In this document: positions 1,056 to 63,614 of the stretch, piece after piece
Numbering within the stretch: the stretch's first letter is position 1
Layout: each line of letters opens with the position of its first letter
Assembly (NCBI GenBank): GCA_002069125.1
Contig: MVZN01000001.1
Span: 5,909 to 69,908 of the forward strand
Source: Spirochaetes bacterium ADurb.BinA120
GTDB taxonomy: Bacteria; Spirochaetota; UBA4802; UBA5368
Direction of reading: 5' to 3'
Length of the DNA stretch: 64,000 nt
Translations under genes and position numbers: made by a program
Notes under the pieces: model-generated
Told to the model about the DNA's origin: nothing
Databases searched by the model: none
Seen by the model: the letters and a program-made list of their open reading frames with translations, nothing else

Positions 1056-1125
1056 AAGCTTACCGCCCTCACCCCCCCGGCCCCCTCTCCCATTTAGATC
1101 GGAAGAAATGAGAGGGGGGGCCAGG
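1056..1125. repeat. R3 hairpin element: CCCCCTCTCCC - loop - GGGAGAGGGGG (10-11 bp stem)
   Basis: Same element recurs at about 60124, 60336 and 60596. Confidence 0.7.
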
Positions 1126-1164
1126 TAGAACAAGTTCTAAGGCATAAACATAAAGGCTTCCTCA

Positions 1165-1245
1165 TGCCGAGCTTCCAACTTTCAACTTTGAACTTTCGAC
1201 TGTTATCCCCCGGCGCTCTGCGCCACCCCCGGAGGGGGTTTAGGC
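1165..1245 (+). repeat. R1 mosaic repeat: 7-bp AACTTT[C/G] tract followed by double-hairpin core CCCCCGGCGCTCTGCGCCACCCCCGGAGGGGG
   Basis: Near-identical core at 9921, 26990-27320 (reverse-complement), 46800-47110, 60257, 60533 and 63103. Confidence 0.85.
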
Positions 1246-9360: not shown

Positions 9361-9791
9361 TTGATTTTCAGTTCCATGAGCATCGCGTCGTCGCCGCCAT
9401 AGTAGCGCCTTCTCCGCCCAGTCTCGACGAACCCAGCCGCGCGATAGAACGAGCGCGCCTCCAGGTTTTTCGAACGCACCTCGATCAATATCCTCGAATG
9501 GGGCGAGGGGGTGAGGCGGCGCGCAAGGTTTTCCAAAAGCGCGCGGCCGATTCCTCTTCGTCTCTGTGATGCGTGTATCAGGATCCGGTTGAGCTGCAGC
9601 TCTCCGGCGACCCTCCAGGCCACCGCGTATCCGGCGATTCCATTCTCATTCTCGGCCACCAGGAAGTGGGAGAAGGAATTGGAAAGTTCACTCTCAAAGC
9701 CCTGGCGGCTCCAGGGCGAGGGCATCCACTCGTTCTCCATGGAGCAGACCGCGTCGAGGTCGGATTCGGTCGCGTTTCGAATGTTTATCAT
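9357..9791 (-). CDS. rimI: Ribosomal-protein-alanine N-acetyltransferase (GNAT, RimI-like)
   Basis: GNAT acetyl-CoA motif QRRRGIGRALL. Size 144 aa. Coupled to engB. Confidence 0.75.
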   Translation of the reverse strand: MINIRNATESDLDAVCSMENEWMPSPWSRQGFESELSNSFSHFLVAENENGIAGYAVAWRVAGELQLNRILIHASQRRRGIGRALLENLARRLTPSPHSRILIEVRSKNLEARSFYRAAGFVETGRRRRYYGGDDAMLMELKIK

Positions 9792-9896
9792 ACGCTATCC
9801 AATAGCCCGCCCGGGGCGAGCCTGTCAAAGCAAAATCGCTTAAGATTGTTATCTTGAGGCGCCGCCAGGATTGTCAGTAGGTTTTCCCTTTAGCCT

Positions 9897-10012
9897 ACTC
9901 CAGAGCTTCGAGACTAACGCCCCCGGCGCGTTGCGCCACCCCCGGAGGGGGTTTTGCTGATGCCGATGGCTTTTCTTTCAGCTTTGAACTTAGAACTTTG
10001 AACTTTCGACTG
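9897..10012 (+). repeat. R1 mosaic repeat: leader CTCCAGAGCTTCGAGACTAACG, core, then AACTTT[C/G] heptamer tract
   Basis: Core CCCCCGGCGCGTTGCGCCACCCCCGGAGGGGGTTTTGCTGATGCCGATGGC, followed by gctttgaacttagaactttgaactttcgact. Confidence 0.85.
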
Positions 10013-10202
10013 CTAATCATCCTTCCCCAAGTGGGGCACGTCCCTTTGGTGGGTACTTGTTTTTAGTCGATCCCGGCGGTTCTTTGTTGACAAAAAGTCT
10101 TTGACAAAAACGGCCATAAAATACTTTTTCATAAAATCACAATCGGTAACCGCCTGCCGGGTGCATCCGGGGCGCAGTCCGGTAAATGCGGGTTTATCGC
10201 CA

Positions 10203-26761: not shown

Positions 26762-26805
26762 CGATTTCCCCTTAACGCGGCCCGGGGTACCGGGATTCGA
26801 TTAAC

Positions 26806-26836
26806 AGTTCAAAGTTCAAAGTTGAAAGTTGAAAGC
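26806..26836. repeat. 7-bp microsatellite (GTTCAAA/GTTGAAA x4)
   Basis: cagttcaaagttcaaagttgaaagttgaaagc. Confidence 0.8.
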
Positions 26837-26845
26837 TAGAATCGG

Positions 26846-26945
26846 CCATCGTCCACAAGGGGCTACAGCCCCTTGCCCTGTAATAAGGTGATCATTTGTA
26901 GAATCTGGCTAATATCTTCGGAGAACAAGGGGTTGTAATCCCTTG
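26846..26945 (+). repeat. R2 element (about 100 bp) with hairpins GGGGCTACAGCCCC and AAGGGGTTGTAA
   Basis: Second copy in reverse orientation at 63210-63311 (about 85% identity by eye). Confidence 0.8.
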
Positions 26946-26989
26946 CGATTACACGGCGAGCATATAAGGCCTTTCCGTAAATAATCCTA

Positions 26990-27320
26990 CCGGCACTCGG
27001 TATCGGAAAAACCCCCTCCGGGGGTGGCGCAGCGCGCCGGGGGATAACAGTCGAAAATTGAAAGTTCAAAGTTGAAAGTTGAAAGTTTAGCCATCGGTAT
27101 CGGCAAACCCCCCTCTGGGGGTGGCGCAGCGCGCCGGGGGATAACAGTCGAAGGTTGAAAGTTCAAAGTTGAAAGTTTAGCCATCGGTATCGGGAAAACC
27201 CCCTCCGGGGGTGGCGCAGCGCGCCGGGGGATAACAGTCGAAAGTTGAAAGTTCAAAGTTGAAAGTTTAGCCAACGGTATCGGCAAAACCCCCTCCGGGG
27301 GTGGCGCAGCGCGCCGGGGG
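26990..27320 (-). repeat. Tandem array of four about 90-bp R1 units (reverse orientation): core AACCCCCTCCGGGGGTGGCGCAGCGCGCCGGGGG plus heptamer linkers
   Basis: Units start near 27001, 27091, 27181 and 27271, differing by only a few bases. The last unit is truncated. Confidence 0.9.
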
Positions 27321-27508
27321 CGTTGAGGTGGCCGGCCGCGCCACCGGGCTATAAATTTAACACAAATCCGTTAATAAGTACAGGTTTCTTTCTTGACACC
27401 CGCTTGCTCAGGGCGTTTCAAATTAGATACCGTCATGGCCCGGCGGATTCTGGCCGTGACTCATGTTCGAGGAGGAACGGCAATAAATAGAGGGCACAGG
27501 AGGTGGTT

Positions 27509-44395: not shown

Positions 44396-46564
44396 CTATT
44401 TAATGAACAACATTTCCCAGAAGCGCGGCAGCGGCCAGATCTCGTCGTCGATTACAAGCTCGATCGCGTCGACCCTGGAACGAATTTTGGCTATCGTTTC
44501 CCGGACTGTGGTGCCGAACGCGGCGGCCTTTTCCTCCTCGGAATGAAGGGATTCCGCGCGCTCGACGTTCCCTTTAAGCTCGGCCACGAGCCTCATGGTT
44601 TCGCCTATAAGGCCGGTCAGGGACGCCAGAAGCTCTCTCTGCGGCGCGAGAAGGGAGTCATCGCCGAGGGCCTGAGCCGCGCTTAGGATCGAGGAGGCCA
44701 ACTCCCCCTGAAAGCGGATCGCCGCGGGAAGGACCTGGCTGTCGACCATGTCGCAGAGTGTGCCGGCCTCTATGTCTATCTCCTTCACATAACGCTCCAG
44801 CCGCACCTGATAGCGCGACATTAGCTCCGCCGAGGAGAGCACCCTGTACTTCTCGAAGAGGGCGACCGCCTTTGGGGTGGCGAGGTCCGGAAGCGATTCG
44901 TAAGAGGTCTTCTTGTTGGGAAGGCCCCTGCGCCCCGCCTCCGCCTCCCATTCCTTCGAGTAGTTGTCGCCCATAAAGAGGACCCTTTTTATGGTACCTA
45001 TCTCGTCCTTCAGCACATCGAGGGTCGCCTGCCTTAAGTTTTCCCCCTTTGCGGCGATCTTCCCGGCGAGGATGTCCAGGCTCTCGGCGACGATGGTGTT
45101 TAGCACGGTGGCCGGGAACGATATGGACTGGGAGGCCCCCACGGCGCGAAACTCGAACTTGTTTCCGGTAAAGGCGAAAGGGGAGGTCCGGTTTCGGTCG
45201 GTGTTGTCCTTGGAGAGGACCGGCAGCTTCGATATTCCCATATCGATAATCGCGCCGTTGGTCCCGTTGCTCACGATTCCCTTTTCGATGTCCTCCAGGA
45301 TGCCGGTAAGCTGCTCGCCTAAGAATACCGAGATGATCACCGGCGGCGCCTCGTTCGAGCCGAGCCGGTGGTCGTTACCGGACGACGCGATCGTTGCCCT
45401 GAGAATATCCGCGTGATGGTAAACCGCGCGGATGGTCGCAACGAGGAATACGAGGAACTGGATGTTGTCCTGCGGGGTTCTGCCCGGATTGAGCAGGTTG
45501 TTGCCCAGATCGTCGGCGAGCGACCAGTTGAGATGCTTGCCCGAGCCGTTGATGCCCGCAAAGGGCTTTTCGTGCAGAAGGGCGGCGAGCCTGTGCTTGG
45601 TCGCGACCGAACGAAGCGTCTCCATCAAGATCTGGTTGTGGTCCACCGCAAGATTGGCCTCCTCGAAGAGGGGGGCGATTTCGTACTGGCCCGGGGCCGC
45701 CTCGTTGTGCCGGGTCTTGGCGGGGATGCCGAGCTTGTAGAGCTCCTCCTCCACATCGTGCATGAACGAGAATATCCTTTCCCTTATGCTCCCGAAATAG
45801 TGGTCCCCCAGCTCCTGGCCCTTGGGGGGAGTCGCGCCGAGGACGGCCCTTCCCGCGAGAAGCAGATCCTGCCTTTTATAATAATAGTCCTGGTCGATAA
45901 GAAAATACTCCTGTTCCGGCCCCAGAGTTGTGTATACCCTGCGGACCTTCCTGTTGCCGAGGACCCGAAGCATGTTGACGGCGCTCGTATTGATCGCCTC
46001 TATGGAGCGCAGAAGCGGGGTCTTCTTGTCGAGCGCCTCGCCGGAGTAGGAAATAAATATAGAAGGAATGCAAAGGGCGCTGCCTATGCCCCGCTTCAAT
46101 ATAAAGGCCGGGCTCGATATGTCCCATGCCGTGTATCCGCGCGCCTCGAAGGTGGAGCGAATCCCGCCGCTCGGAAAGTTCGACGCGTCGGGCTCCCCCT
46201 GGATGAGCTGCTTGCCGGAAAAATGCTCGATCGGCGTCCCATCACTGGTGAACTCGATAAAGGCGTCGTGTTTTTCCGCGGTCGATCCGGTCATCGGCTG
46301 GAACCAGTGGCAGTAATGGGTCGCCCCCTTTTCAATCGCCCATTCCTTCATGGCGTGGGCCACGGCATTGGCCGTTTCCAGATCGGGTTTCCTGCCTCTT
46401 ATGGTGGTGTCCTGCAGCCGGTTAAACACGGCCTCGGGCAGTCTCTCGCGCATGGTGGTGGCGTTGAATGTATCCTCCCCGAAATACCGTGATATGGGGA
46501 CGTTCTTTTCCCGTTCTACCAGGTAGTTTCTGTCGGCGGCGATGATTACTTCGGTGCGCTTCAT
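44396..46564 (-). CDS. glnN: Glutamine synthetase type III
   Basis: About 720-aa GS-III architecture, motifs HNEAAPGQYEIAP and NGSGKH. GGAGG RBS. Confidence 0.8.
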   Translation of the reverse strand: MKRTEVIIAADRNYLVEREKNVPISRYFGEDTFNATTMRERLPEAVFNRLQDTTIRGRKPDLETANAVAHAMKEWAIEKGATHYCHWFQPMTGSTAEKHDAFIEFTSDGTPIEHFSGKQLIQGEPDASNFPSGGIRSTFEARGYTAWDISSPAFILKRGIGSALCIPSIFISYSGEALDKKTPLLRSIEAINTSAVNMLRVLGNRKVRRVYTTLGPEQEYFLIDQDYYYKRQDLLLAGRAVLGATPPKGQELGDHYFGSIRERIFSFMHDVEEELYKLGIPAKTRHNEAAPGQYEIAPLFEEANLAVDHNQILMETLRSVATKHRLAALLHEKPFAGINGSGKHLNWSLADDLGNNLLNPGRTPQDNIQFLVFLVATIRAVYHHADILRATIASSGNDHRLGSNEAPPVIISVFLGEQLTGILEDIEKGIVSNGTNGAIIDMGISKLPVLSKDNTDRNRTSPFAFTGNKFEFRAVGASQSISFPATVLNTIVAESLDILAGKIAAKGENLRQATLDVLKDEIGTIKRVLFMGDNYSKEWEAEAGRRGLPNKKTSYESLPDLATPKAVALFEKYRVLSSAELMSRYQVRLERYVKEIDIEAGTLCDMVDSQVLPAAIRFQGELASSILSAAQALGDDSLLAPQRELLASLTGLIGETMRLVAELKGNVERAESLHSEEEKAAAFGTTVRETIAKIRSRVDAIELVIDDEIWPLPRFWEMLFIK

Positions 46565-46781
46565 TGTTCCTCCGGGAAAGCCCTGTCTTTTGATGAGCAA
46601 CTGAGACCTTCGGCGTTAATTTGTCAAACAAGTACGGGGTGAAATCCAGTTATTAAACGCTAATTTTACATCGATGTAACCTTGCATGCGGTCCCGATTA
46701 TACTGACGGAAAGTCGGGCCGGAAATTTGAGCATAAAGGGCCGCTTGGCTTCTCTTTTAGGCTTTTCCTTTTACTTGCTCC

Positions 46782-47112
46782 AGGGCTGCGGAGGCTAACG
46801 TCCCCGGCGCTCTGCGCCACCCCCGGAGGGGGTTTTGCTGATGCCGATGGCCAAACTTTCAACTTTCGACTGTTATCCCCCGGCGCTCTGCGCCACCCCC
46901 GAAGGGGGTTGCCCGATGCCGATGGTCAAACTTTCAACTTTCGACTGTTATCCCCCGGCGCTCTGCGCCACCCCCGGAGGGGGTTGCCCGATGCCGATGG
47001 CCAAACTTTCAACTTTGAACTTTCAACTTTCGACTGTTATCCCCCGGCGCGCTGCGCCACCCCCGGAGGGGGTTGCCCGATGCCGATGGCCAAACTTTCA
47101 ACTTTTAAGGGC
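46782..47112 (+). repeat. Tandem array of four R1 units (forward orientation), each core plus TTGCCCGATGCCGATGGCCAAACTTTCAACTTTCGACTGTTAT linker
   Basis: Leader CTCCAGGGCTGCGGAGGCTAACG, then four repeats of CCCCCGGCGCTCTGCGCCACCCCCGGAGGGGG with heptamer linkers. Confidence 0.9.
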
Positions 47113-47336
47113 AGTCATAAAAATTAGGCTTTATCGTCGGCCGAAGATGGACAGAAAAGACTAACTACTTAATCTGCAGGTAGTTAGGTTATAAAGAAAA
47201 GTTAAAATTATTAGTTTTAGGACTTCCCTTGATTTCTAAGAGAGGTATAGGATAAATTGGTCAATGCCGGTCGGCCGCGATGTTTTGGCGGGTGGCGGGC
47301 CGAGGGCATTTCCGGGGATATTATCGCCGGATTATA

Positions 47337-58141: not shown

Positions 58142-60031
58142 CTATACAATGTCGGGAATGCTGATGCTGAAACGGGCGCCATGGTCGTTTTCGATACGAA
58201 TGGTGCCGTTTAGCTGTTCCAACATCATGCGCACGAGCTCCAGCCCGAAACCGGCGGTCCCGCCGTAAAGGACCGCCTCGGGGAGTCCGGGGCCGTCATC
58301 GTGTACGACGATCTCGACCGTATTTTTATTTCTCGAAGCCGAAAGGGTAATGCTCCCATTCGGCCTCCCTGTATAGGCGTATTTCATGGCATTTGTGAGG
58401 AGTTCGTTAATGATAATTCCTATCGGTATCAACTTGTCCGTATTCAAGGTAAAATCGTCTATTTGTTTTTCGGACGTTATGACCGCCGAGAGGGTGCTGG
58501 AGGTTATAATATCGTCCATCAGAGGTTCCAGATACCCGCGAAGCGATATGCTTCTATAGTCCGCCGATCGAAACAGCCTGTCGTAGACTATCATCATGCT
58601 GTTTATCCGCGATCGGGCGTCCCGCAGGGTGTCCGCGGCCGAGGCCGAATCGGTGCTGTTGGCCTGAAGGGAAAGCAGGCCCATCATGGTGTTCATGTTG
58701 TTTTTAACGCGGTGATGCACCTCCCTTAGAAGCAGCTCCTTCTCCTCCAGGAGGCGGCTTATCTCGATCGAGGATTCCATCTGGTTCACCACCTTCCAGG
58801 CGGAATCCATCAATATGGTAAGATGCTGCACGTCGCTTTCATCATAATCCGTCTCCTTGTTGCCCACCCCCACTACGGCGACGATTTTATCATTTACAAT
58901 TAGGGGAATCGTCAGGAAACGGGTAAGTTCTACATGGCCCTCCGGATACCCCTTTTTAAGGGGATGGGGATTCTGGAAATCGTTCACCATGATCGTCTTC
59001 CTCTGGCGCACCGCCTCTCCCCATATTCCGGTTCCATGGAGCGGATAGATCGTACTGGGGTTCTGTACGGTGCAGCTTTCCATGACCTCCTTAGACCAGG
59101 TGTTCAGCGTGAACAGTCTCTTCTCTTCGTCATAGAAATAGATATATCCGTATAAACTGGAGGTCAGGGCCAGGGCCTGTTTGAGGGCGTAGTCGAGGAA
59201 GTCCTTGACCGATTCGCTCCGATATTGTAGAATTTCCACCTGGCTTTGCATCCTTGCCGCATTGCGTTTCAACTCCTCCTCCATCTTCTTTTGAACGGAT
59301 ATGTCATGGATTATTGAGTACAGCAATTGTTTCCCCTTGAAGGGAATAGGGCCGGAATAAACCTCGACCTCCCGGATGTCGCCGGAGGCGCGCCTGTGGC
59401 GGAAAAAAAAGACGTTTCGCTTTTCTTTTTCCGCCATTTCCATCTCGCGCCGGGTTTCCTCCGGGGATAGGGCGTTTATATCGAATATCTTTTTGTTTCT
59501 GAGTTCGTCGAGGCTCCATCCATACCAGCGGGAGGCGGATTTGTTCGCGTCGATTATATCGCCGGTTTTCGGATCTACGAGCAGCATGATGGACTGGCTA
59601 TTCTCAAACAATGCGCGATAGCGCTCCTCGCTTTCTCCCAGCATCCTGTGAGATCTATATAAATCGAAAGCCGTCTCTATGGTTGAGCGCAAAGCGGGCC
59701 ACCCGCTGCCTTTGATGACATATCCGTAACCGGGTATTTCCCTGGTTTTTTCGTAGTTGTTCTCTTCAAAACGAGAGGCGAGGAATACTATAGGGGATTG
59801 GGTTTTTCGGGTTATTTCATGGGCTATTTGGATAAAGTCGACGCTGTTGTCCGAATCCGTATCCAAAAGGACCAGGCCAGCGTTCGTCTTGCTACGGATG
59901 ATTTCCATGGCCTCCTCGCCGTTTGCCGCAGCGAGAACGGAATAACCAAAACCCTCGAGGGCCCTTTTGGTCTCGAGCCTGTTTGAGCTATCGTTTTCTA
60001 TAAGAAGTATGGGCTTACGTTTTATCGTCAC
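58142..60031 (-). CDS. Hybrid signalling protein REC-PAS-GAF-histidine kinase (HWE/HisKA_2 type)
   Basis: N-terminal REC (ILLIEND...LLDTDSD). HisKA_2 H-box EVHHRVKNNM. Confidence 0.75.
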   Translation of the reverse strand: MTIKRKPILLIENDSSNRLETKRALEGFGYSVLAAANGEEAMEIIRSKTNAGLVLLDTDSDNSVDFIQIAHEITRKTQSPIVFLASRFEENNYEKTREIPGYGYVIKGSGWPALRSTIETAFDLYRSHRMLGESEERYRALFENSQSIMLLVDPKTGDIIDANKSASRWYGWSLDELRNKKIFDINALSPEETRREMEMAEKEKRNVFFFRHRRASGDIREVEVYSGPIPFKGKQLLYSIIHDISVQKKMEEELKRNAARMQSQVEILQYRSESVKDFLDYALKQALALTSSLYGYIYFYDEEKRLFTLNTWSKEVMESCTVQNPSTIYPLHGTGIWGEAVRQRKTIMVNDFQNPHPLKKGYPEGHVELTRFLTIPLIVNDKIVAVVGVGNKETDYDESDVQHLTILMDSAWKVVNQMESSIEISRLLEEKELLLREVHHRVKNNMNTMMGLLSLQANSTDSASAADTLRDARSRINSMMIVYDRLFRSADYRSISLRGYLEPLMDDIITSSTLSAVITSEKQIDDFTLNTDKLIPIGIIINELLTNAMKYAYTGRPNGSITLSASRNKNTVEIVVHDDGPGLPEAVLYGGTAGFGLELVRMMLEQLNGTIRIENDHGARFSISIPDIV

Positions 60032-60119
60032 GCTGTTTGCCTCGCTGGCGTTGTTGCCGATAGCGCCAGCTTCTAATCCTTACATCATCGTGAATGATTT
60101 GTCAAGGCCGGCCATGTTT

Positions 60120-60750
60120 TTCTTTTAACGCCCTCACCCCCGGCCCCCTCTCCCATTAAGCTCGGGAAAAAAGGAGAGGGGGAGTTCACGCGATGAGCTT
60201 GAGGTTTTTGGCTCAATTATGAGAGATTCTCACTCCAGGTATTCTACGAGCCTAATGCCCCCGGCGCGCTGCGCCACCCCCGGAGGGGGTTTTGCTGATG
60301 CCTATGGCCGAGCTTTGAACTTTGAACTGCTTAACGCCCTCACCCCCGGCCCCCTCTCCCATTAAGCTCGGGAAAAAAGGAGAGGGGGAGTCTCATGGTA
60401 GAATAAGTTTGAAATCGTAACCATAAAGCACCAGCTCACATACTTTCAACTTTTACCTTTGAACTTTCGACGGCCTTTCCTTTCGACTGCCTCTCCTCAA
60501 CTTCCAACTGCTTACCTCCTTCGCCCCCGGCGCGCTGCGCCACCCCCGGAGGGGGTTTTGCTGATGCCTATGGCCGAGCTTTGAACTTTGAACTGCTTAA
60601 CGCCCTCACCCCCGGCCCCCTCTCCCATTAAGCTCGGGAAAAAAGGAGAGGGGGAGTCTCATGGTAGAATAAGTTTGAAATCGTAACCATAAAGCACCAG
60701 CTCACATACTTTCAACTTTTACCTTTGAACTTTCGACGGCCTTTCCTCTG
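60120..60750. repeat. Composite repeat region: R3 hairpin (x3), R1 core (x2), heptamer tracts, and a near-perfect tandem duplication (period 276 bp)
   Basis: 60257-60490 and 60533-60746 are essentially identical over about 214 bp. R3 at 60124, 60336 and 60596. Confidence 0.85.
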
Positions 60751-60901
60751 AAAAATGTTACATTATGGATATAAAAAAAATACTGAAAGCATATTTAAAA
60801 TGGTTTTCAATTAATTTGAGCCCATATTTATATGACAGGCATGATACGCCCCCCTGTGGGTGATGCCGGTTGCGATAGAATGAGTGTCAGGAGAGAAAGA
60901 T

Positions 60902-62878
60902 ATGCCAAACATTGATTATTTCAACCTGCCCTGGAAGGACCAGTGGGAATGGGAGCGGACGAAACTTCCCACCGTTACGCAGAGATACGTAGAGAATTCC
61001 AAAACCTACGCCGCCAAGGACCTTCAGCGTTTCAACCCGGCCCTTTACAAGGGGGACGGCAACGGCACCATGACCTGGGGCGAGGCCTACGAGAGGGTCG
61101 AGAACTACGCCTGCGGCCTCATGAGCCTTGGCCTGAAAAAGCAGGAGATGGTGGCGATAATGTCGGCCAGCGGCCCTTACTGGACGCATGCAGACATGGC
61201 GCTAGCCTGCGCCAACGGTGTTAGCGTAGCGATATATCCAACGCTTTCTTTAAAAGAGGTCTCGTATATCGTCAACGACTCCGCGAGTAAATTCATCTTT
61301 TTAAGGGGCGCCGACGTACTGAAAATGGTCCTCTCCGGCATTGACCGGATGCCGAAGCTTGAAAAGATCATCGTGATGGACCGTGAATACAAGGGCCAGG
61401 ATTCAAGGGTCATCGGGATGGGCGAGCTTGAGAGGATGGGTGAGGAATGGAAAAAAACGAAGGCGAATTACGAAGCCTTTATCGTTAGGCGCGACGGGGT
61501 CGTTCTCGACGACATATACACCATTCTCTATACCTCCGGCACCACGGGACAGGGCAAGGGCGTGGTGCTTACGCATCATAACGCCTCTTCGAGGATGAAC
61601 GGGGTAAATGAATTTTTCAAGTATTGCGGTATGGACTTCAAAACTGAATACACCACCCTGTGTTTTCTGCCCCTTGCCCACATATTCGACAGGGGCTCGT
61701 GCCAGCTTGCCGCCATCTTCAACGGATGCACCATCTGCTACGCCGATTCGCCCGGAACCCTGGTGGCCGATTTACAGAAATACAACCCGCACTGGATAAA
61801 CTGCGTACCGCGTCTTTACGAAAAGATATACATCCAGCTCCAGCAGACTATGGGCGAGAGCGGGCTTAAGCGAAAACTCTTCGACTGGGCGCTGGGCGTC
61901 GGGGAACAGGTCTTTATGCGGCGTTATGATCCCGAAACCGACACCTATAACATGGGCCACGACTATGACGTAACGCGGGACCTGCCGCTTGGATTGAAAA
62001 TCAAATTCAGGATAGCCGACAAACTTTTCGCCAAGGTGCGCGCGCTGTTTGGGAGTAACTTTAAGCACTCCTTCTCCGCCAGCGCCTCAATATCGCCCGA
62101 GCTCCTAAGATTTTTCTATATAATCGGGATCAGGGTGAGCGAGGGATACGGTTCCACCGAGAGTTTCAACGCCTGCGCCAACATGCCTCTTCGGGCCTGC
62201 AGGCCCGGTTCCGTCGGTCTGGAATCAAACGGCAGCAGACTGCGCGTGTCCGAAATTGGAGAGCTCGAGCTGCGCGGCGCGGGCATCTTCAGGGAGTACT
62301 GGAACAAGCCCGAGGAGACCCGTTCCTCGTTTACGGAGGACGGATGGTTCAAGACGGGCGACAAGGTGGAGGTTGACCGATTCGGTTACTATAAGATAGT
62401 AGATCGCATCAAGGCGATCATCTGCCTTTCCAGCGGCAAGAACGTGGCGCCGGCGAAGATCGAAAGTCTGTTCGCCACCAGCCCCTACATTGACCAGGTG
62501 TTCACCATCGGCGACGAGCGTGCGGTGATCTCCATGCTCTTCGTCCCGAACCTTACATATTTCAAGGACAAGTTCGACCGGGAGGGCATTGGATACGATA
62601 AAAACGCCGTGGTGATAGACAGCTCGGCCGGAGCGCCCATTGTGGTCAAGGTGGGGCCCGACTTCATCGAGAAGGGGAACATACGCGGCCTCATCGCCGA
62701 GGAGATCGCAAAGGCCAACAGGGAGCTCGAGGGTTTCGAGCAGATCAAACAGCATACGGTGCTTTGCGAACGCTTTACCGAGCAGAACGGCATGCTGACC
62801 CCGACGCAGAAAGTGAAGAAAAGGGTGGTCCTCGATGTGTACTCCGGGGAGATAGAGAAGATGTATTCTCGGCCCTGA
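60902..62878 (+). CDS. Long-chain-fatty-acid--CoA ligase (AMP-binding)
   Basis: YTSGTTGQGKGVVLTHHN AMP-binding motif, YGSTE and GWFKTGD motifs. RBS CAGGAGAG. Confidence 0.85.
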   Translation: MPNIDYFNLPWKDQWEWERTKLPTVTQRYVENSKTYAAKDLQRFNPALYKGDGNGTMTWGEAYERVENYACGLMSLGLKKQEMVAIMSASGPYWTHADMALACANGVSVAIYPTLSLKEVSYIVNDSASKFIFLRGADVLKMVLSGIDRMPKLEKIIVMDREYKGQDSRVIGMGELERMGEEWKKTKANYEAFIVRRDGVVLDDIYTILYTSGTTGQGKGVVLTHHNASSRMNGVNEFFKYCGMDFKTEYTTLCFLPLAHIFDRGSCQLAAIFNGCTICYADSPGTLVADLQKYNPHWINCVPRLYEKIYIQLQQTMGESGLKRKLFDWALGVGEQVFMRRYDPETDTYNMGHDYDVTRDLPLGLKIKFRIADKLFAKVRALFGSNFKHSFSASASISPELLRFFYIIGIRVSEGYGSTESFNACANMPLRACRPGSVGLESNGSRLRVSEIGELELRGAGIFREYWNKPEETRSSFTEDGWFKTGDKVEVDRFGYYKIVDRIKAIICLSSGKNVAPAKIESLFATSPYIDQVFTIGDERAVISMLFVPNLTYFKDKFDREGIGYDKNAVVIDSSAGAPIVVKVGPDFIEKGNIRGLIAEEIAKANRELEGFEQIKQHTVLCERFTEQNGMLTPTQKVKKRVVLDVYSGEIEKMYSRP

Positions 62879-63084
62879 TGCGCAAAGTTATATCTTGCTA
62901 TACACCCGAACGGAAGGGATCGTCCCAAAAGTTACTTTTGGGAAGTCCCTCTCTTCAGTCGATGAAAGATATAACGGCCTTCGTTACTTTCGTGGGGCGA
63001 AAGACATCATGGAAGCGCCGCGCTTCGTTACGGGCTACGCCCTACTAAGCGTCTGCTTGGATAGTCTGTAGGTTTTTCCTAATA

Positions 63085-63390
63085 CTTACTCCAGGGGTGC
63101 GGAGACTAACGCCCCCGGCGCGCTGCGCCACCCCTAGAGGGGGTTTTGCTGATGCCTATGGCCGGTTGGATTATTTACGGATAGGCCATATATGCTCGTC
63201 GTGCAAAAGTTAGGGGTTACAACCCCTTGTTCTCTGAAGATATTAGCCTGATTCCACGAAGAATCCCCTTATTACAGAGTTAGGGGCTGTAGCCCCTTGT
63301 GGACGATGACCTATTCAAACTTTGACCTTTGACCTTTGACCTTTGACCTTTGAACTTTGAACTTTCAACTTTCGACTTTCGACTGTTTCC
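63085..63390. repeat. Composite repeat locus: R1 (forward) - R2 (reverse) - 7-bp microsatellite (CTTTGAC x5, AACTTTG/C)
   Basis: Mirror image of the 26806-27320 locus architecture. Confidence 0.85.
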
Positions 63391-63614
63391 CTTTCGCCTG
63401 CTTATCATCTTCCCGCAAGCGAGCCATGCTTCTGTGGGGTTGCTTGTTTTTAATCAGCCTCTGTCTCGTTTTAATGCTCTCGGATGACGAAATGGCGTAA
63501 ATGGATTGACATCGCCGAGAAAGACGGCAATATCGATGACAAATGCGGCCCTGCGGCGGGGCGTATCTCAGGATTTATCGGGCGCAATCCTTTGCTGGGA
63601 GAATGGTGGAAGCA

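Follow-up and report, generated by a model that had tools for sequence, protein, structure and literature searches.

The short tandemly repeated repetitive (STRR) sequences of heterocystous cyanobacteria are tandem 7-nt repeats, confined to intergenic DNA and found genome-wide. Neisserial intergenic mosaic elements (NIMEs) consist of 70-200-bp repeat sequence (RS) modules separated by the 20-bp dRS3; the dRS3 copies are inverted repeats that flank RS and are targets of phage and IS110-type recombinases. Bacterial interspersed mosaic elements (BIMEs), in Escherichia coli and its relatives, are clusters of repetitive extragenic palindromes (REPs, also palindromic units, PUs) and other short motifs, and have been linked to recombination and genome plasticity; RS/NIME is listed in the same source among the neisserial repeats (PMC3184786). 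The two REP super-families are recognised by a terminal tag, GTAG or CGTC, that stays unpaired (Di Nocera et al. 2013, PMC3733652). The pneumococcal BOX element, boxA-(boxB)n-boxC, is modular, intergenic and dispersed, and its copy number varies between strains (PMC3049150, PMC3184786). Here we describe a repeat family, named R1 after its core repeat, in a 64-kb stretch of Spirochaetes bacterium ADurb.BinA120 (contig MVZN01000001.1, positions 5,909 to 69,908; "the window"). Our starting point is one intergenic cluster of the family, the block at 60112-60747, in which a unit made of R1, a second repeat called R3 and further modules is present twice.

We assign a probability of about 0.72 to the reading that this block is a non-coding cluster of interspersed mosaic repeats, BIME/NIME/BOX-like, that expands and contracts by unequal recombination or slippage. 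This reading is carried by the anatomy of the block, by the dispersal of its modules, by length polymorphism, and by the absence of coding, Rfam, terminal-inverted-repeat, target-site-duplication and strand-bias signals.

Repeats in the block were called by a repeat search and by Tandem Repeats Finder (TRF). Both found two copies of 225 nt, at 60257-60481 and 60523-60747, that are 100% identical; the start-to-start period is 266 nt (TRF: 1.8 copies, score 982), and the 41-nt stretch between the copies, 60482-60522, is not duplicated. A perfect repeat of 225 nt is far beyond chance. The original prediction, made from the sequence before this analysis, had seen that a tandem duplication exists, but its coordinates (60257-60490 and 60533-60746), copy length (214 bp) and period (276 bp) give way to those above. 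It had the content of each copy right: an R1 (60257-60289 and 60523-60555), an AACTTTG tract and an R3 (60331-60391 and 60597-60657). The full order of modules in the duplicated unit is R1, B, heptamers, R3, W and a further heptamer tract, H'. The features between the two flanking genes are listed here, with L numbers denoting the loci used for comparison.

60032-60111, no strand assigned: unique sequence upstream of the kinase start, the left border of the repeat cluster; kept in all three length alleles of the region (alignment with L006-L011).
60125-60185, plus strand: R3 copy a, 61 nt, a 10-bp GC-rich stem with a 19-nt loop by folding; 100% identical to the other two R3 copies and missing in allele L011.
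60186-60256, plus strand: leader module A' (…TTTGGCTCAATTATGAGAGATTCTCACTCCAGG…GAGCCTAATG), 5' of R1; the segment 60207-60397 recurs at 89% identity in L004, L038, L056, L065, L096 and L101.
60257-60481, plus strand: composite unit copy 1, also present whole at other loci (see below), with R1 at 60257-60289, B linker at 60290-60309, heptamers plus AACTGCTTAAC at 60310-60335, R3 copy b at 60331-60391, W at 60392-60440 and the degenerate heptamer tract H' at 60441-60481.
60482-60522, plus strand: single 41-nt linker of degenerate heptamers, whose last 23 nt are the leader of the lone unit in the 482-bp allele.
60523-60747, plus strand: composite unit copy 2 (repeat search and TRF), with R1 at 60523-60555 and R3 copy c at 60597-60657.
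60748-60901, plus strand: AT-rich sequence, unique and without differences between alleles; it lies upstream of the AMP-binding gene and presumably holds that gene's promoter and 5' untranslated region.

The 61-nt R3 thus stands three times in the block at 100% identity (60125, 60331 and 60597), and its pattern has three matches in the window against 0.01 expected. The third R3 that had been predicted at 60124 is real, with its start at 60125. The fourth, predicted at 1056, is only a diverged relative at 1062-1122, with 67% identity over 61 nt, rising to 76% over 148 nt once the W and heptamer modules that follow are included. The stem, given before as 11 bp, folds as 10 bp (CCCCCTCTCC / GGAGAGGGGG) around the 19-nt loop.

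R1 (GCCCCCGGCGCGCTGCGCCACCCCCGGAGGGGG) is a core of 31-33 nt with two short GC hairpins, GGCGC-NNN-GCGCC and CCCCC-RGA-GGGGG, each with a 5-bp stem. At up to three mismatches it has 13 matches in the window, where 0.00 are expected. The family forms at least six intergenic clusters there, about 2.2 kb or 3.4% of the window, and in two of the six intergenic regions R1 is arrayed in tandem with periods of 75-97 nt:

1062-1238, plus strand: diverged R3-W-heptamers, then R1.
9877-10011, plus strand: leader A, R1, B, heptamers.
26800-27329, minus strand: R1-B-heptamer repeated every 90-97 nt, four units in all, together with module X and a heptamer tract.
46758-47117, plus strand: leader A, then four R1-B-heptamer units with a period of 75-89 nt.
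60112-60747: the block itself.
63069-63390, plus strand: leader A, R1, B, module X, nine heptamers.

Scanning metagenomes for the R1 core yielded 88 further R1-bearing stretches (about 0.7 Mb), and 116 unique R1 copies were compared. Their stems (GGCGC/GCGCC and CCCCC/GGGGG) are essentially fixed and their loops variable, which is weak evidence for selection on the stems because the search pattern itself fixed them. All 41 pairs of R1 neighbours less than 400 bp apart share one orientation, head to tail. The usual 5' context of R1 is …GAGCCTAACG or …GACTGTTAT, with leader A or A' standing before the first R1, and the 3' context is the B linker (TTTTGCTGATGCCGATGGCC or a variant). After B come alternatives: (AACTTTC/G)n heptamers up to the next R1, giving the periods of 75-97 nt; heptamers, AACTGCTTAAC and R3 with its W tail, as in the block; a conserved 150-nt module X; modules Y and Z; or an 81-82-nt spacer. 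The whole 222-nt composite (R1-B-H-R3-W-H', where H stands for heptamers) is found at 77-86% identity at L065, L038, L109 and L096, and the A'-R1-B-H-R3 portion at 89% in the six loci listed above. To judge from these matches, the duplicated unit is a dispersed composite element. Its two copies in the block are a local duplication, because they are 99-100% alike, far above any other pair. An R1 scan of the GTDB representative genomes returned only five single matches, on short or mis-binned contigs of metagenome-assembled genomes (MAGs); these were of no help in comparing genomes but pointed to digester Spirochaetota. By the NCBI names of identical proteins and the sample sources, the organism is an uncultured member of the Spirochaetota from anaerobic digesters and sewage.

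Module X, about 150 nt long and conserved, lies invariably between R1-B and the heptamer tract. It occurs in the window at 63160-63316 (plus strand) and 26840-26995 (minus strand) and in L002, L029, L043, L054, L061, L073, L081, L091, L092, L102 and L105, in all about 12 distinct loci at roughly 85-90% identity. It contains a promoter-like TTGGAT-N17-TATATG and two AAGGGG-N-CCCCTT hairpins, is without an Rfam match, and in one copy (L002/L054) is interrupted by an additional 28-nt palindrome; it may be the gene of a small RNA or a further mobile module. The sequences that follow the heptamers at 10008-10085 and 63381-63460 are also alike (…CTGCT(A/T)ATCATC(C)TTCCC…TGGG(G/T)…CTTGTTTTTA(G/A)TC) and may be a common tail module, or else a terminator or 5'-untranslated-region element upstream of the next gene. 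A short motif, ACGGCCTTCGTT(A/G)CTTTCGT, stands just upstream of repeat clusters at unrelated loci (window 62973-62992, L004 803-822 and L094 near 8480) and may belong to a further repeat family.

Set against the described systems, the R1 family is one of mosaic interspersed intergenic repeats with the behaviour of variable-number tandem repeats, that is, head-to-tail copies of one unit whose number differs between close relatives. It lies outside BIME, NIME, BOX and STRR proper, because the sequences are unrelated, R1 is repeated directly rather than inverted, and the REP tags are absent. Like a REP in a BIME, R1 is a short GC-rich extragenic palindromic unit in many copies, single or clustered with other motifs, and its 31-33 nt fall within the 20-40 nt of the GC-rich imperfect palindromes that are called REPs. 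Unlike REPs, its consensus flanks (…CTAACG before CCCCC and TTTTGC after GGGGG; on the other strand, CGTTAG after GGGGG) hold no GTAG or CGTC. The units of REPIN doublets and PUs alternate in orientation whereas R1 units run head to tail, and since R1 pairs are never inverted, mobilisation of the REPIN/RAYT kind is not indicated. There is also no sequence similarity to BIMEs, the host belongs to the Spirochaetota rather than to the proteobacteria, and no gene for a RAYT (a Y1 transposase) was seen in a weak test of 10 representatives of open reading frame (ORF) families.

With NIMEs the family shares strain-variable intergenic arrays of varied non-coding modules punctuated by a constant short repeat, but the sequences are unrelated, and the ORF scan (weak) and the phage and viral searches found no such recombinase or phage link here. 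With BOX it shares a leader, a variable number of tandem internal units and a tail; sequence and host are again unrelated, and BOX is transcribed and predicted to form one long RNA stem, whereas R1 units fold only as two small hairpins. The likeness to NIME and BOX is one of architecture only, and we do not claim sequence homology. STRR sequences resemble it in their tandem, intergenic, dispersed heptamers, but here the heptamer is AACTTTC/G and its tracts always lie within larger R1 or R3 composites. Finally, a partly palindromic 31-33-nt repeat every 75-97 nt, as at 26800-27329 and 46758-47117, recalls CRISPR arrays. We rejected a CRISPR, because one and the same "spacer" recurs from unit to unit (units 94-98% identical) and the arrays have no cas genes beside them; the neighbours encode an aminotransferase, FBA, GSIII and KsgA.

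The variability of the family is seen directly at the block. The protein encoded by the gene on its right, an acyl-CoA ligase, is encoded on at least 24 public contigs, six of which were aligned to the window and give three intergenic lengths between the same genes:

L006-L009 (ENA/MEGAHIT, an NCBI MAG and two JGI metagenomes): 870 bp; length, 266-nt period and linker all match the window.
L010 (an NCBI MAG): 604 bp, shorter by exactly one 266-nt period.
L011 (a JGI metagenome): 482 bp, shorter by 388 bp, with R3 copy a, leader A' and unit copy 1 missing.

Over about 1.9 kb, only 0-5 nt set the flanking genes apart from those of the window, and every allele has its unique promoter-proximal segments intact (80 nt next to the kinase, 154 nt next to the ligase). 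The two copies of the unit differ from each other by two single-nucleotide polymorphisms (SNPs), at unit positions 64 and 121, in L007-L009, and by five in L006. Comparison with related genomes had been proposed as a check on copy-number variation, and it also bears on whether the duplication is an assembly artefact: the length varies, and four independent assemblies contain two copies that 2-5 SNPs tell apart, so that the duplication is not an artefact of assembly. An artefact of assembly or polishing is the least credible of the explanations that we weighed. Two 225-nt copies at 100% identity are indeed hard for short reads, the copies in the other assemblies do differ at 2-5 positions, and chimeric or truncated contigs are found at R1 arrays (L079, L002, L004); but the same period and the same 41-nt linker recur in all four assemblies, and at most the loss of two SNPs in the window, not the duplication, could be artefactual. 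Among such contigs, L079 (Ga0209096_1102959, 1172 nt) joins window positions 46370-47105 head to head to 27320-26827 and is an assembly chimera, and L002, L004, L025, L026 and L089 end inside R1 or R3.

The alleles also give a direction of change. The 604-bp allele lacks the 41-nt linker, and therefore the 870-bp allele is not derivable from it by simple duplication; the reverse step, loss of one period from a two-copy allele by recombination between the copies, is straightforward. The duplication had been called recent, but the two-copy allele is seen more often than any other, and the 604-bp allele must descend from it; by these alignments two copies thus appear to be the older, common state. 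Recent or local in the window is only the perfect identity of the copies. There, and only there, copy 1 has the bases of copy 2 at 60320 and 60377, the outcome either of gene conversion over at least 58 nt or of consensus polishing. In L006, R3 copy a (2224-2290, corresponding to 60125-60185) carries four changes (an extra C, GCTT-GGAAG), all equal to the R3 variant of other loci (L038, L065), which suggests ectopic gene conversion between dispersed copies.

The same variability is seen wherever we could look for it: each cluster that could be compared between assemblies shows length polymorphism. The array between the GSIII and KsgA genes has 3, 4, 5 or 6 R1 units (L021, L012, L016 and L017, respectively) beside a GSIII gene with 0 differences in 2169 nt, and private SNPs in the extra units of the longer alleles tell against simple mis-assembly. 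Between the aminotransferase and FBA genes, four units are arrayed in L023 and L024 and six in L022. As unit counts vary while flanking genes are identical, unit number must change much faster than point mutations accumulate in the population. The duplication, described originally as unusual, is one case of a genome-wide property of the repeat family, and recombination or replication slippage between repeat units, named originally as its cause, is the obvious source, with copy number polymorphic here and at every R1 array compared. On a smaller scale, the nine (A/C)CTTTG/C heptamers at 63318-63380 are fewer by four (28 bp) in L007 and L010 between identical flanks; this is microsatellite-like slippage.

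Could the block instead be a contingency (phase-variation) locus, in which copy number sets how many binding sites lie between the divergent kinase and ligase promoters, or how far apart they are, and so switches expression? Its position between divergent genes, the three length alleles in near-clonal populations, and heptamer tracts that vary in multiples of 7 bp are in keeping with this. However, the variable part lies outside the 80-nt and 154-nt promoter-proximal segments, and the same behaviour is found beside unrelated housekeeping genes (GSIII, KsgA, FBA, aminotransferase) and in convergent regions, which fits a property of the repeat and not of a regulated locus. We regard phase variation as highly improbable. 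More generally, the regulatory consequences once suggested for the duplication find no pointer here, with both promoter-proximal segments kept in all alleles and no orientation bias among clusters.

The flanking genes themselves are as originally stated, by their domain content: 58142-60031 on the minus strand encodes a hybrid response-regulator/PAS/GAF/HisKA_2 histidine kinase, and 60902-62878 on the plus strand, divergent from it, an AMP-binding acyl-CoA ligase. Between them the ORF listing shows nothing gene-like, only short ORFs of up to 53 aa, several of which are the same reading frames repeated in both copies. For the family as a whole, genes were called crudely in the window and in the metagenome loci. 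This placed 76 of 83 clusters outside long ORFs; the other seven lie in ORFs of 110-212 aa, which we take to be spurious frames over the repeats. Public gene calls as well as crude ORF calls set "proteins" on R1 arrays, such as a 152-aa product at L017 1066-1524, and ORFs of 110-212 aa also run across arrays in L071, L072, L079 and L087. These array-spanning proteins are almost certainly not real, and hypothetical-protein clusters will grow from them in databases.

Forty-two of the clusters had two assignable neighbours, and of these 15 lie between divergent genes (the commonest home of the family), 10 between convergent genes, and 7 and 10 between co-directional genes in sense and antisense, respectively. 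The clusters thus have no strand preference, which argues against roles as terminators or mRNA stabilisers. A role at the RNA level, with R1 elements acting as terminators, REP-like stabilising 3' hairpins or small RNAs and the duplication altering expression of a neighbour, could draw on the TTTT that follows the terminal GC hairpin of R1 in many copies, on the promoter-like sequence conserved in module X, and on the known transcription of REP and BOX elements and their effects on mRNA (PMC3184786). Against it, beyond the lack of orientation bias, the largest class of clusters lies between divergent genes, where there is no 3' end at all. An Rfam 15 search at gathering score gave no match in the window or in 11 related loci, and an E-value search of the block gave only sub-threshold, chance-level matches. 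When R1, R3, W and the entire unit were folded as RNA, for each of the two strands, the folds were no better than those of shuffled sequences (z from -1.1 to +0.9 for R1, R3 and the unit). A promoter and terminator scan of the block found no terminator-like site; its weak promoter-like sites are on the minus strand only, two in module W and one at the ligase start. With 0 such sites, 7 sense against 10 antisense clusters and 15 clusters between divergent genes, we rejected the intrinsic terminator. Likewise rejected was an extended outer stem around R1 (AGCCTAA…TTAGGCT, AGCCCAA…TTGGGCT), which only a few copies have: across 85 unique copies, 184 of 2000 shuffles reached the observed pairing, so that pairing of the R1 flanks is no better than in shuffled sequences. 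On balance we think a role in RNA quite unlikely.

The main rival to expansion and contraction by general recombination is that R1 is the site of a dedicated recombinase (IS110/Piv-like, tyrosine or Y1) and that the modules are cassettes inserted and excised at its borders. The constant R1 with interchangeable modules in one orientation has this look, and so do three junctions: a near-identical strain (L050) has a 151-nt module exactly at the 5' edge of R1, the 388-bp allele difference at the block starts exactly at the left edge of the cluster, and the B/heptamer junction at which module X is found or missing is a fixed one. The L050 module (9757-9909, compared with window 1206) sits between the heptamer tail and R1 and holds an inverted R3-like hairpin (CCCTCTCCCCCCGGGAGAGGG…GGGGTGAGGGCG); the flanks of the two strains are 99.2-99.6% identical. 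GCCTAAC and GCTTAAC before the hairpins also fit the R'' sequence of integron attC sites (consensus RYYYAAC).

Other observations speak against a dedicated recombinase. No integrase or transposase was found among 10 scanned representatives of the multi-copy ORF families (548 ORFs in the roughly 0.7 Mb of R1 loci), a weak test that turned up ordinary metabolic paralogues plus three families without a Pfam match. R1 is not followed by a matching R' (GTTRRRY), the arrays occupy many separate intergenic regions instead of one platform, the modules are without ORFs, and homologous recombination explains gain and loss of units within arrays equally well. A dedicated recombinase is in our view unlikely. 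The fuller version, in which R1 would be the attachment site of an undescribed site-specific system in digester Spirochaetota that shuffles non-coding cassettes (heptamers, R3-W, X, Y and Z) among intergenic regions, we hold to be somewhat less likely still; if true, it would parallel integron attC or neisserial dRS3 in a dispersed, ORF-less form and account for the differences between arrays that stand beside identical genes. The three multi-copy families without a Pfam match at 1e-5 measure 162, about 270 and 289 aa; they sit at L035 455-943, L062, L068, L100 and L050 5-400; at L039 2479-3258 with five paralogues; and at L066 1942-2811 with four paralogues.

Two known kinds of mobile element were also considered and rejected. 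An integron combines R'' (RYYYAAC) and R' (GTTRRRY) in attC sites that form a single array, beside intI or in a cluster of attC sites lacking an integron-integrase (CALIN), with cassettes that usually have ORFs. GCCTAAC fits R'', but GTTTTGC or GTTGCCC after R1 misfits R', there are at least six separate clusters in 64 kb, the block ORFs reach at most 53 aa, and the outer pairing is that of shuffled sequences. A miniature inverted-repeat transposable element was rejected for want of terminal inverted repeats and target-site duplications. The ends of the unit, GCCCCCGG… and …GGCCTTTC, are not complementary, its dispersed copies adjoin other modules and not a duplicated target sequence, and the repeat search reported no inverted repeats in 59900-61000. 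Searches of plasmid, phage and viral-contig collections gave no match.

We therefore return to the BIME/NIME/BOX-like repeat cluster and to how it would work. Long direct repeats (the 225-nt composites, the R1 units of 75-97 nt and the 7-nt heptamers) are classic substrates of unequal RecA-dependent exchange, replication slippage and gene conversion. Exchange and slippage would lead to gain and loss of units, of whole composites and of single heptamers between otherwise identical strains. Gene conversion, or else an assembly consensus, over unit positions 64-121 would account for the identity of the window's copies, where those of other strains differ. The cluster would persist where additional DNA is probably tolerated and does least harm, bounded on either side by the unique promoter-proximal segment of a divergent gene; as selfish or structural DNA it would be near-neutral to selection and would not serve as a dedicated regulator. 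Both the recombination or slippage mechanism and this near-neutrality are what we infer from the comparisons.

Several points weigh against this account. The importance of the hairpins is not demonstrable from folding energy alone. A role at the DNA level, such as protein binding, supercoiling or recombination hot spots, may exist, and is compatible with the absence of strand bias and of Rfam matches. Indels of whole modules exactly at the R1 border hint at a process more specific than general recombination. Some of the copy-number variants could be errors of short-read assembly (compare the chimeric L079), and a small k-mer, if one was used, could have collapsed the L010 allele to one copy.

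Taken as a BIME/NIME/BOX-like cluster, the block adds a new case to a familiar kind of bacterial "junk" repeat, and nothing marks it out as a special regulatory device. The R1 family breaks or scrambles short-read assemblies of a widespread digester spirochaete, in that contigs end in it and one is chimeric; its regular arrays could be mistaken for CRISPRs by CRISPR finders, and gene callers put ORFs on the repeats. Its length polymorphisms are ready-made strain markers for following the organism across reactors. The practical value is modest. The family would gain in interest only if a dedicated recombinase came to light or if it were seen to alter expression. To the BIME/NIME/BOX class of mosaic repeats the family adds a spirochaete example, one in which copy number changes unusually fast compared with point mutation.

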